From the NCBI GenBank assembly GCA_045612185.1, contig JAZKYO010000030.1, positions 18,506 through 82,505 of the forward strand: a stretch of 64,000 nt of DNA, given 5' to 3'. Numbering within the stretch: position 1 is the stretch's first letter; each line of letters starts with the position of its first letter. Positions 56,389 through 61,930 of the stretch are shown here, piece after piece. A program made the translations under genes and the position numbers. The notes under the pieces were generated by a model. The model saw only the letters and a program-made list of their open reading frames with translations. It did not search any database and was not told the DNA's origin. The DNA is from Eubacteriales bacterium. GTDB lineage: Bacteria; Bacillota; Clostridia; Oscillospirales; CAG-272.

Positions 56389-58386
56389 GTGGCAACAAAC
56401 AAAAGCAAACAGGAATACGGCAACCAAAGTATAACCGCCCTGAAAGGCGCGGACAGAGTAAGAAAACGCCCAAGCGTTATATTTGGCTCGGACGGACTTG
56501 AGGGCTGTCAGCATTCGTTTTTCGAAATCCTTTCAAACTCGGTTGACGAGGCCAAAGAGGGACACGGTAACGAGATAACCGTTACCGCATACCTTGACAA
56601 CTCAATCACAGTTGACGACAAGGGACGCGGAGTTCCGCTTGGGTACAACGAAAAGGAAGGAAGATGGAACTGGGATCTTATATACTGTGAGCTATATGCG
56701 GGCGGAAAATACAACAACAACGACAGCGAGGCTGCTTACGAGTACTCTCTCGGTCTTAACGGTCTTGGTGCGTGCGCTACCCAATACAGCTCAGAATACA
56801 TGGACGTTTATTCCTACGACGGCAAGTTCGTGCGCTCCATTCACTTTAAAAAGGGCGAGCCCTGCAGCGAGCTTGAAGAACGTGAGCTTGAGCGCAAGGA
56901 AAAACGCACGGGTACGGTTATTCATTGGAAGCCCGACCTTGAAGTCTTTACTGACATAAGGATTCCCCATGAGTTTTTCATCGAAACCATGCGCCGTCAG
57001 TCGGTAGCCAACGCGGGAATCTCTTTCGTTCTTAAGCTCGAGCTTGATGACGGAAGCTTTGAGGAGCATAAGTTCCTCTACCCGGGCGGCATCTCCGACT
57101 ACATTGCCGAGATTGCGGGTGAGGCTTCTATGACCGCGCCCTACTTCTGGCATCTTGAGACCAAGGGACGCGACCGTGACGACAAGCCCGAGTACAAGCT
57201 GAAGGCCGACTTTTCCTTCTGCGTTTCCAACAGCATCAACCTTATAGAGTATTATCACAACTCAAGCTTTCTTGAGTACGGCGGTTCGCCTGACAAGGCT
57301 GTAAAACTAGGATTTGCCTACGCACTTGACAAATACATCAAAAACGCGGGAAAATATACCAAAAACGAGTCAAAGATCACCTTTAACGACGTAAGCGACT
57401 GTCTTATTCTCGTCATCAACAGCGTTTCTACGATAACGTCATACGAAAATCAGACAAAAAAAGCTATCAACAACAAGTTTATCTACGAGGCGATGTATGA
57501 GTCGATAAAGACGAATCTTGAGATTTTCTTCATCGAAAATCCTCAAAGCGCGGAAGTTTTTGCAAACCAAGTACTGATAAATAAGCGTAGCCGCGAGTCT
57601 GCCGAAAACGCGAGACTCAACATCAAGAAGAAGCTGACGGGCACGCTTGACATAGCCAGCAGAGTGGAAAAGTTTGTAAACTGCCGTTCAAAAGACCCGA
57701 CCAGAAGAGAGCTTTATATAGTTGAGGGTGATTCGGCACTTTCGTCCTGTAAACTGGCGCGCGACGCTGAATTCCAAGCCATTATTCCCGTCAGAGGTAA
57801 GACGCTTAACTGTTTGAAGAGCTCTTACGATAAGATTTTCAAATCAGAGATAATAACCGATCTGTTAAGAGTTATCGGTTGCGGAGTGGAGATTCAAGGC
57901 AAGGTAAAAACCGACATGCCCGCGTTTGACATTGAGTCCTTGCGTTGGTCAAAGATTATTATTTGTACCGATGCCGACGAGGACGGCTTCCAGATAAGAA
58001 CTCTGCTTCTTACGCTGTTCTACCGTCTGCTTCCCTCTCTTCTTGCAGCGGGCAAGGTGTTTATCGCCGAGTCTCCGCTGTTTGAAATCACCTGCAAGGA
58101 CGATATTTATTTTGCGTATAACGAGTTTGAAAAAACTGAAATTCTTAAAAAGCTCGAAGGCAAAAAATACACCCTGCAGCGTTCCAAGGGTCTTGGTGAA
58201 AACGAGCCGGAAATGATGTCAAAAACCACCATGAAGCCCGAATCCCGCCGCCTTATCGCGGTTACTACCACCGATGCGGCAAAAACATTCGAGATTTTTG
58301 ACACGCTACTTGGCGACAACCTCCCCGCCAGAAAAGAATTTATCACACTTCACGGCAAGGAATACGTCAAGGATGCCGACATATAA
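56389..58386 (+). CDS. type IIA DNA topoisomerase, ATPase (B) subunit, divergent GyrB/ParE-like
   Basis: It uses a GTG start. The GHKL Asn context is 'EILSNSVDEA'. The Toprim motifs are 'LYIVEGDSA' and 'ICTDADEDGFQIRTLLLTLFYR'. 'QRSKGLGENEPEMM' is also present. No A-subunit gene lies next to it. Confidence 0.8.
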   Translation: MATNKSKQEYGNQSITALKGADRVRKRPSVIFGSDGLEGCQHSFFEILSNSVDEAKEGHGNEITVTAYLDNSITVDDKGRGVPLGYNEKEGRWNWDLIYCELYAGGKYNNNDSEAAYEYSLGLNGLGACATQYSSEYMDVYSYDGKFVRSIHFKKGEPCSELEERELERKEKRTGTVIHWKPDLEVFTDIRIPHEFFIETMRRQSVANAGISFVLKLELDDGSFEEHKFLYPGGISDYIAEIAGEASMTAPYFWHLETKGRDRDDKPEYKLKADFSFCVSNSINLIEYYHNSSFLEYGGSPDKAVKLGFAYALDKYIKNAGKYTKNESKITFNDVSDCLILVINSVSTITSYENQTKKAINNKFIYEAMYESIKTNLEIFFIENPQSAEVFANQVLINKRSRESAENARLNIKKKLTGTLDIASRVEKFVNCRSKDPTRRELYIVEGDSALSSCKLARDAEFQAIIPVRGKTLNCLKSSYDKIFKSEIITDLLRVIGCGVEIQGKVKTDMPAFDIESLRWSKIIICTDADEDGFQIRTLLLTLFYRLLPSLLAAGKVFIAESPLFEITCKDDIYFAYNEFEKTEILKKLEGKKYTLQRSKGLGENEPEMMSKTTMKPESRRLIAVTTTDAAKTFEIFDTLLGDNLPARKEFITLHGKEYVKDADI

Positions 58387-58387
58387 A

Positions 58388-58422
58388 AGAAAAGGTGCAG
58401 TTCACTCAAACTGCACCTTTTA
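58388..58422. terminator. bidirectional terminator between the topoisomerase B gene and the TetR gene
   Basis: aaaggtgcagtt-cactca-aactgcaccttt. Confidence 0.85.
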
Positions 58423-58424
58423 TA

Positions 58425-58943
58425 TTAATTCGGAAGCGGAGACACCATATCGGAGCTTAGCTTGATTTCTTCGGCAAACTTTTTTGGAGAAACGGGACAA
58501 TCGGATTGCAACCAATTTCTTACCGCACAAAAAACTCCGTATATCAAAAAATCTTTTCGCACGTCCGTGCTGCCGGATAACGGGCTGTACTTAGGCAGGA
58601 AACGCGTGCTTCTCTCCTCAAAATGGACGAAAAACGAATTTTCGGCATTGCTTGCAAACACGTTTTTATAGAAAGTCTTATTCTCGCACAAGTACTCGCA
58701 AAGGGCGCAAGTATAGTCTATCCATCCAACGTCTGCGACGTTTTCCAAAGGAACAAAAAACTCGGTATCAAATATCCAATTAATAATCTCGTATTTATCC
58801 TTGAAATGATAGTAAAAATTTTTTCTGCTCATATAACTGCGCGAGCATATCTCGCTTACGGTTATTTTGTCAAACGAGCTTTGCGTCATTAAATTCTTCA
58901 TGGACTTTGCCAGCTCAGCCTTGGTAATATTTGCCCCTGTCAT
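58425..58943 (-). CDS. TetR/AcrR-family transcriptional regulator (DhaS-like subgroup)
   Basis: I chose the ATG at 58943 (RBS GGAGGAG). The HTH is 'FDKITVSEICSRSYMSRKNFYYHFKDKYEIINWIF'. Confidence 0.75.
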   Translation of the reverse strand: MTGANITKAELAKSMKNLMTQSSFDKITVSEICSRSYMSRKNFYYHFKDKYEIINWIFDTEFFVPLENVADVGWIDYTCALCEYLCENKTFYKNVFASNAENSFFVHFEERSTRFLPKYSPLSGSTDVRKDFLIYGVFCAVRNWLQSDCPVSPKKFAEEIKLSSDMVSPLPN

Positions 58944-58961
58944 TTTCTCCTCCGAATTTAT

Positions 58962-59006
58962 AAAAATAAAAAACGAGACTTCTCTGCCATTGCAGATAAG
59001 TCTCGT
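58962..59006 (-). terminator. intrinsic terminator inside the TetR leader
   Basis: The minus-strand sequence is 'ACGAGACUU-AU-CUGCAAUGGCAG-AG-AAGUCUCGU' followed by UUUUUUAUUUUU. It ends about 18 nt before the TetR RBS, and no gene lies upstream on this strand. Confidence 0.7.
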
Positions 59007-59081
59007 CAATCAAGATAAGACCGGGATTAAAATCCGTACTGTTGGTCTTATCACACTATGTGCCGACTACTCCCCTATTTA
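58962..59081 (-). promoter_or_regulatory. structured 5' leader: candidate yybP-ykoY-like (Mn2+) riboswitch with intrinsic terminator, upstream of the TetR gene
   Basis: The minus-strand RNA starts about at the predicted TSS with 'AAUAAAUAGGGGAGUAG' (GGGGAGUAG at 59075..59067). Proposed pairings are AUAGG (59078-59074) with CUUAU (59000-58996) and GUCGG with UUGAC. The 3' loop strand is GAGA. There is a hairpin CACA-UAG-UGUG and an 8-bp helix AUAAGACC/GGUCUUAU enclosing a hairpin. The CUUAU strand is shared with the terminator stem. No equivalent of helix P4 is visible. Confidence 0.4.
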
Positions 59082-59087
59082 TTAATT

Positions 59088-59116
59088 ATTGTATCAGAAA
59101 AAAATGAATTTTTCAA
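59088..59116 (-). promoter_or_regulatory. sigma-A-type promoter for the leader/TetR transcript
   Basis: Minus strand reads TTGAAA-17 nt-TACAAT. Confidence 0.55.
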
Positions 59117-59209
59117 GACTTTTTGATGGTATTTTGATTAATTTTTCCATATTTGTCGAAATATCTTTTTAAGAAACACAAAAATGTTACAGTAAGCTCA
59201 CTCTGTCTG

Positions 59210-59238
59210 TTGACACGGATCGATTTTTTTGGTAAAAT
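59210..59238 (+). promoter_or_regulatory. sigma-A-type promoter of the P-type ATPase gene
   Basis: TTGACA-17 nt-TAAAAT with TG two nt upstream of the -10. It lies about 30 nt before the start codon. Confidence 0.7.
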
Positions 59239-59269: not shown

Positions 59270-61930
59270 TTGAATCCGCACAATATGACAAAAGAAGAGT
59301 TGCTGACTGCCTTATCCTCAAGCGAAAGTCTTGGCTTGAGCGGTGAAAAAGCGACAGAACTAAAAGAAAAGTTTGGTGAAAACAAGCTTCGCGAAAAGAA
59401 GAAAAAAACCAATCTTCAGCGATTTTTGGATCAGTTCAACGACGTTATGATAATTATTCTCCTGATCGCAGCGGCGATCTCGTTTGTAATCGTCTGCGTT
59501 GAGAAAAATTGGGGAGAGCTTTTTGAGCCTGCGCTTATACTTCTTATCGTAATACTCAACGCTATTATGGGCGTCGTTCAGGAAAGCAAAGCCGAAAAGG
59601 CGCTTGACGCTTTGAAAAACATGTCTGCGCCGCATGCAAGAGTCATCAGAGACGGCAGCGAAAAGGTTATTGACGCCGCCGAGCTTGTTCCCGGTGACAT
59701 CATAAAAGTAGAGGCGGGAGATTTTGTACCCGCGGACGCAAGGCTGCTTCACAGCGCAAGTCTTAAGAGTGAGGAATCGGCTCTTACGGGAGAATCCGTG
59801 CCGTCTGAGAAAGACCATGCAACCGTGGTTGAGGAAAACTCGCCGATAGGTGACAGAACGAACATGATCTTTTCGGGATGCAGTATCACCTACGGCACCG
59901 CTACGGCTATTGTTACAGGAACCGGAATGAACACCGAAATGGGCAAGATAGCCAACCTGCTTGACGGTGAATCCGACTCACAGACTCCCTTACAGCAAAA
60001 GCTCGCTCAGCTTGGAAAATGGCTTGGCATAGTTGCACTTGCCGCTTGCGCGATAATCTTTGTGGTGGGACTTCTTAACAACACCCCCATACTTGAGATA
60101 TTTATGACCTCGGTTTCATTGGCGGTTTCCGCTATTCCCGAAGGACTTCCCGCCATAGTTACAATAGTTCTTTCCATTGGCGTTCAGCGAATGGCGAAGA
60201 AAAACGCGCTTATACGCAGACTTCCCGCTGTTGAAACGCTTGGCAGCGCATCTATAATCTGCTCCGACAAAACAGGTACTCTCACCCAGAACCGCATGAC
60301 GCTTGTAAAAGCTTTTGCGGACGGTGAAGCTGACATTGAGGAAATAAGCGCAAGCAACTCCGACAGCATCAAAAAGCTCCTCACTTACGGCACGCTTTGC
60401 TGTGACGGCTCTGTGGTTTTTGAAGGTGACGAAGAAAAGCACATAGGAGATCCCACGGAAACTGCCATAGTTTTTGCGGCTCATAAAAACGGTCTCGCCA
60501 AGGACTCGCTTAACATTGACTATCCAAGACTTGCCGAGATTCCGTTTGATTCCGACAGAAAGCTTATGTCTACCGTCAACCGTATCAACGGAAAAAACAT
60601 CGTAATCGTTAAAGGCGCGTTTGACATGATGGCTACACGCTGTACGTCAGGCAACATCGAAACGGCGCGCGAAATTACAGACCGAATGAGCAAAGATGCG
60701 CTTCGCGTTCTCGCAATAGCTTGCAAGGAAATTGATACCGTCCCAACCGCTCCGACCTCGGAAGAGCTTGAAAACGGACTTACCTTTATGGGACTTGTTG
60801 GCATGATAGACCCGCCGAGACCCGAGGCCAAGGTTGCGGTAGCTACCTGCCGCAAGGCGGGAATAAAGCCTGTTATGATAACTGGGGACCACGTTGTCAC
60901 AGCTTCGGCAATAGCCAAGGATCTTGGAATTTACGTTGACGGCGATTGTGCTATAACCGGTGCCGAGCTTGACGCCATGAGTGACGAGGAGCTTGACAGC
61001 CGTGTTGAAAGTATTTCGGTATACGCTCGCGTTTCGCCCGAAAACAAAATACGAATAGTTAAGGCATGGCAACGCAAGGGTAAAGTGGTTTCGATGACGG
61101 GTGACGGCGTAAACGACGCCCCCGCGCTTAAAGCCGCAGACATAGGTTGTGCCATGGGTATTACGGGCACAGACGTTGCGAAGGGAGCGGCTGACATGAC
61201 GCTTACCGACGACAACTTTGCTACCATAGTTGATGCCGTTCGCGAGGGGCGCGGAATCTACGCCAACATCAAAAAGGTGGTCGGTTTCCTTTTGGGAACC
61301 AACATTGGCGAGGTTATTACGGTATTCGTGGCTATGCTTCTTTTCCACGTATCTCCCCTGCTATCCATGCAACTGCTTTGGATAAACCTTGTAACAGACA
61401 GTCTTCCCGCCATCGCGCTTGGTATGGAGGCGGTTGAATCCGATATTATGAATCAAAAGCCCAAGCCCAAAAGCGAGGGAATATTTGCCCACGGGCTTTG
61501 GATAAAGGTTATACTTCAGGGAATTATGTTCGCAGGTCTTACTCTGATTGCTTTTGTGGTTGGCACAGGACTTCCCGTCAGCGAGCTTATAAGCGGCGCG
61601 TTCAGGAACGGCGCCAATGAGACGGCACTTGCCCAAGGACAGACGTTGGCGTTTATGGTACTTGCGCTTTGCCAGATAGTTCAGGCTTACAACATGCGTT
61701 CGGAACACTCGCTGTTCAAGATTGGCTTCTTTGGAAACAAAAATCTCAATCTTGCGGCACTCGCTTCAACGCTTCTCGTGGCGCTTGTGCTCTTTACTCC
61801 CGTGGGAATTGCTTTTGGAATGAAGATTCTTTCGTGGAAACTTTACCTCATAGGGCTTGGACTTATCCTTGTACCCCTTGTTGTAATGGAGTTCTGCAAG
61901 CTGGTAGGATTTATCAAGCACAGACACTAA
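59270..61930 (+). CDS. P-type IIA cation-transporting ATPase (Ca2+/Mn2+-type)
   Basis: A TTG at 59270 lies 8 nt after GGGAGG. The alternative ATG is at 59285. The longer track ORF would run through the promoter. Motifs are TM4 '[11 protein letters not shown]', the phosphorylation site 'CSDKTGTLT', 'MITGDHV' and '[12 protein letters not shown]'. Confidence 0.9.

Follow-up and report, generated by a model that had tools for sequence, protein, structure and literature searches.

The window, the whole 64,000-nt stretch of DNA analysed here, contains a TetR-family regulatory gene whose leader resembles a manganese riboswitch, and a gene encoding a P-type ATPase is located divergently to it. To our knowledge, the yybP-ykoY riboswitches characterised so far act as direct ON switches of genes for transporters or membrane proteins. 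The locus represents a compact system that raises the question of why a protein relay should be inserted between a riboswitch and its usual target. In the reading that we consider likely, the TetR gene is preceded by a leader that functions as a transcriptional ON riboswitch, a three-way-junction member of the yybP-ykoY (Mn2+) class, and the TetR protein would then probably act on an inverted repeat at the promoter of the ATPase gene. The conserved structure, the family membership and the recurrent gene contexts of the element were computed, and from these data we infer the ligand, the read-through, the binding of TetR to the repeat and the sign of TetR action.

The genetic layout of the leader was deduced on the minus strand, to which all coordinates of the leader refer. 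A TTGAAA-17-TACAAT promoter had been assigned to positions 59116 to 59088 in the original prediction, and a sigma-70-type promoter with 10 of 12 matches and a TG in front of the -10 region is present there as described; the position of this promoter predicts a transcription start near 59081. The leader begins with the sequence AAAUAGGGGAGUAG and includes an 88-nt aptamer of the three-way-junction yybP-ykoY type (58993..59080) that was delineated by the covariance model R2 and by covariation, as specified below. Helix P1.1 is composed of the strands AUAGG and CUUAU (59078-59074 with 59000-58996) and is followed by the L1 strands GGAGUA on the 5' side (59073-59068) and GAGA on the 3' side (59004-59001), by helix P1.2 with the strands GUCG and UGAC (59067-59064 with 59008-59005) and by the P2 hairpin CACA-UAG-UGUG (59062-59052). 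Helix P3.1, in which AUAAGACC pairs with GGUCUUAU (59051-59044 with 59022-59015), encloses the loop L3 with the sequence AACAGUAC (59043-59036) and the hairpin P3.2 (59035-59024), and the junction is formed by the sequence CUUGAU (59014-59009).

The aptamer overlaps an intrinsic terminator (58962..59006) that comprises a hairpin at 59006-58973 and a U-run extending to about 58962. The terminator hairpin ACGAGACUUAUCUGC...GCAGAGAAGUCUCGU along with U6 (59006-58968) yielded a folding energy of -20.2 kcal/mol, and the sequence located right after the hairpin is UUUUUUAUUUUU; the hairpin at 59006-58973 was absent from the list produced by a simple terminator scan. The assumption that the 3' strand of P1.1 also belongs to a strong terminator was confirmed, as P1.2, L1 and P1.1 all contribute their 3' strands to the terminator, where they make up the 5' arm. 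The reuse of these strands makes the aptamer fold and the terminator fold mutually exclusive. Folding of the whole leader gave a z value of -2.7, and the minimum free energy of the full leader was -38.2 kcal/mol in the terminator state versus -25.5 kcal/mol with the aptamer enforced, so that the terminator is favoured by about 13 kcal/mol. The nascent 86-nt aptamer alone folds with P1.1 closed.

With respect to family membership, a score above the gathering threshold of the Rfam Mn2+ riboswitch model RF00080 had been named as support for the assignment, but the element reached only 7.9 bits (E 1.8) on a 141-nt search space, compared with a gathering score of 45. No RF00080 match was detected at E<=10 in 3 kb around the element or at E<=1 across the whole genome, and none of the 27 copies scanned, i.e. 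the window copy and 26 relatives, attained the gathering score. Three sub-threshold matches of 31, 25 and 22 bits in relatives correspond to the same element and thus link the group to the canonical yybP-ykoY family. RF00080 was rejected as a membership test, since this model expects helix P4. The model RF02617 (SSRC10, 'Streptococcus sRNA 10') matched the window element over the full model length with 34.7 bits (E 2e-5 to 5e-4), a value below its gathering score of 56 bits, and scored 27-50 bits on relatives, where the matches are located upstream of mntP, P-type ATPase, orphan oadB-like and Na/Pi transporter genes. Two of the nine RF02617 matches in relatives (L003 and L006) were discarded as false, representing a terminator and a tRNA, and an aptamer-only covariance model (R1) was therefore built.

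The R1 model was applied to 201 genomes of the same bacterial family and detected at least one copy in 130 of them, including a single copy in the genome of the window. A further covariance model (R2), which was generated from 41 relatives with the window sequence left out, assigned 71.2 bits (E 2.8e-18) to the window element as its sole match in the 64-kb window. In an alignment of 35 copies that includes the window copy, 94.3% of the pair cells form standard pairs, whereas just 33-47% of the cells pair when the partners are slid by one to three columns; the alignment was fitted to the model and somewhat favours the structure for this reason, yet the difference from the slid controls is considerable. 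Changes on both sides were observed in 22 of the 25 pairs, and these are distributed across all five helices, P1.1, P1.2, P2, P3.1 and P3.2. The helices of the initial drawing, including the hairpin enclosed by P3.1, were recovered in the sequence, and each of them covaries in the 35 aligned copies.

Helix P4 is absent from the window element, in which merely six nucleotides separate P3.1 from P1.2 and a four-way junction is lacking, and it was likewise found in none of the 41 relatives. In place of P4 the element contains a short single-stranded linker, and the terminator downstream of it shares sequence with the 3' side of P1, as is characteristic of the three-way-junction subtype. The absence of P4 had initially been interpreted as indicating either a variant or a different RNA; the former interpretation held and corresponds to the published three-way-junction form (PMC6649816), while the latter was abandoned. 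Judged by its sequence, the element is clearly a member of the three-way-junction (P4-less) yybP-ykoY subtype. The genes downstream of the 35 aligned copies encode mostly orphan OadB-like proteins (13 copies), MntP (8) and P-type ATPases (7), and more rarely Na+/Ca2+ exchangers (2), TetR regulators (2), a PiT protein, a Na/Pi transporter and an SPFH protein (1 each).

The three-way-junction form is known from SN44, the RNA in the mgtA 5' UTR of Streptococcus pneumoniae, which is a riboswitch of the yybP-ykoY family with P4 replaced by a short UNAAA linker that is followed by the terminator; both Mn2+ and Ca2+ are bound by the SN44 aptamer, and read-through is activated by Mn2+ in vitro as well as in vivo (PMC6649816, Martin et al. 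2019). The window RNA resembles the mgtA element in the lack of P4, in the L1 sequence GGGAGUAG with AGA on the 3' side, in the CA of L3, in the C-G pair closing P3.1, in the overlap of the terminator with the 3' side of P1 that provides the ON logic, and in the presence of a PII-type Ca2+/Mn2+ ATPase in the system. It differs from mgtA, where the RNA resides directly in the 5' UTR of the ATPase gene, in that it precedes a TetR gene while the ATPase gene is divergent and equipped with its own promoter, and furthermore in the junction (UUGAU instead of UNAAA) and in the start of L3 (AACA instead of GUCA). With the canonical four-way form (RF00080), represented by L. lactis yoaB, B. subtilis yybP and ykoY and E. 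coli mntP, it shares the L1 and L3 consensus, the helix order P1.1-L1-P1.2, P2, P3.1-L3-P3.2, the control of a Mn2+ exporter gene (mntP) in relatives and an ON switch by anti-termination. It deviates from this form by the missing P4, by RF00080 scores of 7.9 bits here and at most 31 on relatives, and by a transcription factor as target.

SSRC10 of S. pyogenes adjoins a gene annotated as 'putative calcium transporter' (PMC3675131). Because of this genomic position and the GGGAGUAG-containing consensus of the RF02617 model, SSRC10 and SN44 appear to be the same RNA, with SSRC10 seemingly corresponding to the product of termination at this three-way-junction Mn2+ riboswitch. These data add to the evidence that the Rfam Mn2+ model misses the three-way-junction form; its streptococcal version is filed in Rfam as a small RNA.

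All columns that are invariant in the family were present in the window copy, namely GGGAGUA in L1 with AGACU on its 3' side, the C-G pair closing P3.1 and the CA dinucleotide of L3. In particular, L1 contains GGGGAGUAG at 59076-59068 and GAGA at 59004-59001, the respective columns being invariant in the 35 copies; the CA dinucleotide is located within AACAGUAC, and a C-G pair closes P3.1 in 35 of 35 copies (C59044-G59022 in the window). In the mgtA riboswitch of S. pneumoniae, the residues of the metal pocket and of the A-minor contact are G16-G17-A18, C46-G83, C49-A50 and AGA, and the A of C49-A50 makes an inner-sphere contact to Mn2+ (PMC6649816). The L1 G-G-A, the P3.1-closing C-G, the L3 CA and the AGA of the window copy correspond to these residues, and the L. 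lactis counterparts are G8-G9-A10 in L1 and C40-A41 in L3. Departures were observed in the junction, which reads UUGAU and not UNAAA, a sequence described as 'invariant' in Streptococcus. Most of the relatives in Clostridia carry UUAAA or UGAAA at this position, the TetR-linked copy of G229 carries UUAAU and locus L009 carries GGAAG; the third junction position is A in at least 90% of the relatives and G in the window copy. The start of L3 is AACA rather than GUCA, with AACA being common to mntP- and ATPase-linked copies and GUCA occurring in oadB-linked ones.

The regulatory gene itself (58425..58953, minus strand, including the ribosome-binding site GGAGGAG at 58953-58947) starts with ATG at 58943 and encodes a DhaS-like protein of 172 amino acids (ORF 58425-58943). 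The protein passes the Pfam cut-offs for TetR_N and TetR_C_8, which substantiates the TetR-family target named in the original prediction, and the pairing of such a gene with the riboswitch recurs in five genera. The best named family is NCBIfam TIGR02366 (DhaS) with 101.6 bits, compared with an equivalog cut-off of 129, and by this measure the window protein is a relative of DhaS and no equivalog. DhaS is a TetR-family activator of Lactococcus lactis (TIGR02366), and the position of the candidate operator upstream of the -35 region would suit an activator; unlike for DhaS, no dha genes and no gene for the partner protein DhaQ are located nearby, and the function of the window protein is deduced only from its synteny with a metal pump. 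A bidirectional terminator (58390..58421) closes both the TetR gene and a convergent gyrB-like gene, and the TetR gene is therefore monocistronic. A search of the relatives with the TetR protein identified the riboswitch directly upstream of orthologs in five genera belonging to three families, i.e. in the window genome (genus g1), G229 (g73) and G156 and G068 (both g56) of family f1, in four species of genus g152 (family f18) and in G448 (family f19). The terminator overlaps P1 in all further copies of which the sequence was read as far as the expression platform (G229, G156 and the four g152 species). When assembled contigs were searched with the TetR protein, only four distant loci were obtained, none of which was informative.

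The divergent gene encodes a P-type IIA ATPase of the PMR1-like Ca2+/Mn2+ type (59270..61930, plus strand), with a probable TTG start at 59270 that is located 8 nt after GGGAGG. As originally predicted, it has its own promoter, a near-consensus TTGACA-17-TAAAAT sequence with 11 of 12 matches (59210..59238, plus strand). The leader of the ATPase gene is short, and the R2 search of the 64-kb window detected no riboswitch in it. The best models for the ATPase were PMR1-type and SERCA-type Ca2+ ATPases. Divergent pairs of TetR and ATPase genes were found at 11 loci, with the ATPases being 71-77% identical to that of the window (65% over a short stretch in L080). A riboswitch precedes the TetR gene in six of these 11 pairs and is missing in the other five, so that TetR must also work without the riboswitch.

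The regulation of the ATPase gene was moreover surveyed in 27 orthologs of at least 66% identity in the family sample. Four of the orthologs are directly under riboswitch control, namely those of G111, G201 and G080 and that of G170, which is part of a riboswitch-mntP-ATPase operon; their identity to the window ATPase amounts to 75-78% in G111 and G170 (78% in G111), 73% in G201 and 67% in G080. A riboswitch-TetR unit adjoins the ATPase gene in two cases (the window genome and G229), TetR alone adjoins it in two (G107 and G175), and the unit is located elsewhere in the genome in a further two (G068 and G156). Neither a riboswitch nor a TetR gene was found adjoining the ATPase gene in the remaining orthologs.

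A comparison within the genus provided information on the history of the cassette. An orphan gyrB-like gene is present at positions 56389-58386 (plus strand) of the window, and its counterpart is located directly upstream of the ATPase gene in G012 (L091), a genome of the same genus whose ATPase is 84% identical. In G012 the ATPase gene follows the gyrB-like gene after only about 160 nt, an interval in which no TetR gene and no riboswitch were found, whereas about 880 nt including the TetR-riboswitch cassette separate both genes in the window. By this comparison, the cassette is an insertion or a deletion between the gyrB-like and ATPase genes. A riboswitch copy of any form was present in 3 of the 14 species of the genus, and the TetR form was confined to the window species and missing from the 13 others; this patchy presence characterises the cassette as a regulatory module that is gained or lost. 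The mntP and oadB homologs of the window genome (contigs C12, C96 and C47) gave no sign of a riboswitch, and the TetR leader thus represents the only sensor copy of this genome.

With regard to the mode of action, the nascent RNA would form the terminator hairpin 59006-58973 and the U-run in the absence of ligand, and transcription would stop about 25 nt before the ribosome-binding site of the TetR gene. A divalent metal, most likely Mn2+, would bridge L1 (GGAGUA/GAGA) and L3 (the CA of AACAGUAC) and thereby hold P1.1 and P1.2. The 5' arm of the terminator would then be sequestered by the held helices, and RNA polymerase could read into the gene of the DhaS-like regulator. By analogy, the leader is expected to follow the ON logic of L. 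lactis yoaB and S. pneumoniae mgtA.

The aptamer could alternatively sense another divalent ion such as Ca2+, in which case the circuit would tune a Ca2+ pump and not Mn2+ export. This explanation, which we regard as unlikely though worth keeping in view, fits the observations that the three-way-junction aptamer of S. pneumoniae had a higher affinity for Ca2+ than for Mn2+ in vitro (PMC6649816), that Ca2+-type models give the best scores for the partner ATPase, that relatives also precede Na+/Ca2+ exchanger genes, and that the window copy combines an unusual junction with an unusual start of L3. In S. pneumoniae, however, it is Mn2+ and not Ca2+ that drives read-through both in vitro and in vivo (PMC6649816). 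Moreover, relatives with an L3 of the AACA type precede mntP, the gene of a dedicated Mn2+ exporter, and the L3 CA, equivalent to C49-A50 of mgtA with its A in inner-sphere contact with Mn2+, is conserved in the window copy.

The unusual junction, which departs from UUAAA at two positions, might alternatively mark the aptamer as a decaying relic and the leader as a constitutive attenuator or a leaky terminator, with the expression of TetR being independent of metal. An A-C mismatch occupies position 47, where most relatives form a pair, and the cassette is patchy, given that the 13 other species of the genus lack it and that five of the 11 ATPase-TetR pairs lack its riboswitch. Decay is nevertheless quite improbable, as none of the invariant positions or of the five helices is disrupted, as the promoter, the terminator and the ribosome-binding site are intact, and as the score of 71 bits with an independent model exceeds that of many copies preceding mntP; the UUNAU junction is also shared with G229 and hence looks like a lineage variant. 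Least probable of all is that the terminated RNA of about 110 nt constitutes the actual product, a trans-acting small RNA in line with the Rfam entry of SSRC10, and that TetR is a mere bystander of read-through, although such a role would be compatible with the riboswitch. Northern blots of S. pyogenes indeed showed SSRC10 as a discrete RNA (PMC3675131), and the window leader possesses its own promoter and a strong terminator. Terminated riboswitch leaders, however, always show up as small RNAs, and the fixed short distance of the aptamer to the start codons of coherent genes, encoding metal transporters and, in five genera, TetR regulators, is what would be expected of a cis element.

On the assumption of a metal-responsive ON switch, the DhaS-like TetR protein would probably act on an inverted repeat that abuts the -35 region of the divergent promoter of the PMR1-type Ca2+/Mn2+ ATPase gene. 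The candidate TetR site is the operator-like sequence AGACA-N12-TGTAAC (59186..59208, read on the minus strand), to which binding is presumed. As in genus g152, a single nucleotide separates the window repeat from the -35 hexamer of the ATPase promoter, which lies downstream of it, and the window repeat is imperfect (AGACA/TGTAAC). The motif [AG]GACA-N11-12-TGT[ATC][AC]C (GGACA-N11-12-TGTYMC) was present in eight of 11 ATPase-TetR intergenic regions, compared with at most 2 in 2000 shuffles, with the pattern having been defined after viewing the data and the four g152 species counting as one lineage, which leaves about five independent lineages. In G229 the motif was not detected. In genus g56, where the TetR gene is unlinked, a GGACA-N12-TGTCC sequence is located roughly 25-30 nt upstream of the -35 region of the operon that holds the ATPase gene, and the repeat of G156 has TGTTAC-T6 in front of it, a feature shared with G107, G494 and G462.

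The perfect repeat occurs about four times per genome in six other genomes, i.e. at chance frequency and no more commonly than a reversed control, so that the information lies solely in its location at the ATPase promoter. Its presence at this promoter in several lineages is unlikely to result from chance, and the conserved position provides the main support for a relay from the riboswitch via TetR to the ATPase. A scan of the window genome for the repeat yielded 21 matches versus roughly 30 expected by chance, and no TetR regulon could be called from them; the seven matches examined more closely, which have AT-rich or palindromic spacers, are mostly located inside open reading frames and none of them near metal-related genes. 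The regions upstream of the mntP and oadB homologs on C12 and C96 contained no repeat.

Activation of the ATPase gene by TetR appears more likely than repression, roughly by a factor of two, because the operator is located upstream of the -35 region, because DhaS is named an activator in NCBIfam, and because sister lineages switch the ATPase gene ON with the same riboswitch. Repression is favoured by the near-consensus sequence of the ATPase promoter and by the proximal half-site abutting the -35 box.

The relay from riboswitch to TetR to ATPase is plausible on these grounds, and the two-tier circuit suggested in the original prediction gains comparative support from the conserved TetR-ATPase pair and from the operator-like repeat at the ATPase promoter. 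It would involve a division of labour, with the RNA sensing the metal and the protein relaying the signal. As a tentative extension, to which we give slightly less than even odds, a metal riboswitch may have been recruited as the sensory front end of TetR, such that the level of TetR is set by the RNA in response to Mn2+ and TetR in turn controls the ATPase via a conserved operator of the GGACA-N12-TGTCC type, even if unlinked as in genus g56. If this holds true, the riboswitch would head a regulon acting in trans, the ligand domain of TetR would be available for a second signal, and the relay would be an alternative solution to a task that sister lineages perform by wiring the same ATPase directly to the riboswitch. 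A cis-acting RNA sensor could thereby control promoters elsewhere in the genome and be combined with a second, protein-sensed signal. The locus also bears on the role of the abundant DhaS-like TetR regulators in gut Clostridia. The RNA fold is already known (Martin et al. 2019, PMC6649816), and the TetR wiring appears to be new; a limited literature search revealed no description of a yybP-ykoY or manganese riboswitch paired with a TetR or other transcriptional regulator, nor of a TetR-ATPase-operator module.

Several further observations were made in the relatives. In genus g56 the riboswitch-TetR unit is located just downstream of an NfeD-SPFH gene pair, and the operator-bearing promoter is separated from the ATPase gene by one or two open reading frames for small membrane proteins, which apparently form an operon with this gene (L088, 1132-1653; L089, 954-1893). 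Two further GGACA-N12-TGTCC repeats are kept between both g56 species (G156:C1:67930 with G068:C30:2463 and G156:C6:119234 with G068:C48:22805) and could be more operators of the g56 TetR protein or of its paralogs. The TetR ortholog beside the ATPase gene in G107 (contig C80; L050, 7034-7546), which also has no riboswitch, lacks ATG, GTG and TTG at the conserved N-terminus and shows ACG at the expected start; either decay of this copy or initiation at an unusual codon may account for this.

The L3 loop occurs in two subtypes that track the targets, with C-AACA preceding mntP, P-type ATPase and TetR genes (59043-59040 in the window) and CG-UCA preceding oadB-like, PiT, Na+/Ca2+ exchanger and Na/Pi genes, and these subtypes may represent two classes of specificity or affinity. 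The commonest target in the family is a stand-alone oadB-like gene, corresponding to the beta subunit of a Na+-pumping decarboxylase (13 of the 35 copies; L004, L010, L011, L014, L018, L020, L021, L023, L024, L029, L033, L038 and L039), with the aptamer near position 1501 of each locus. Locus L008 (G015:C21) contains two riboswitch copies on one strand at positions 402-541 and 1478-1585, 1 kb apart, with an SPFH/band-7 gene downstream of the first copy and a Na/Pi cotransporter gene downstream of the second.
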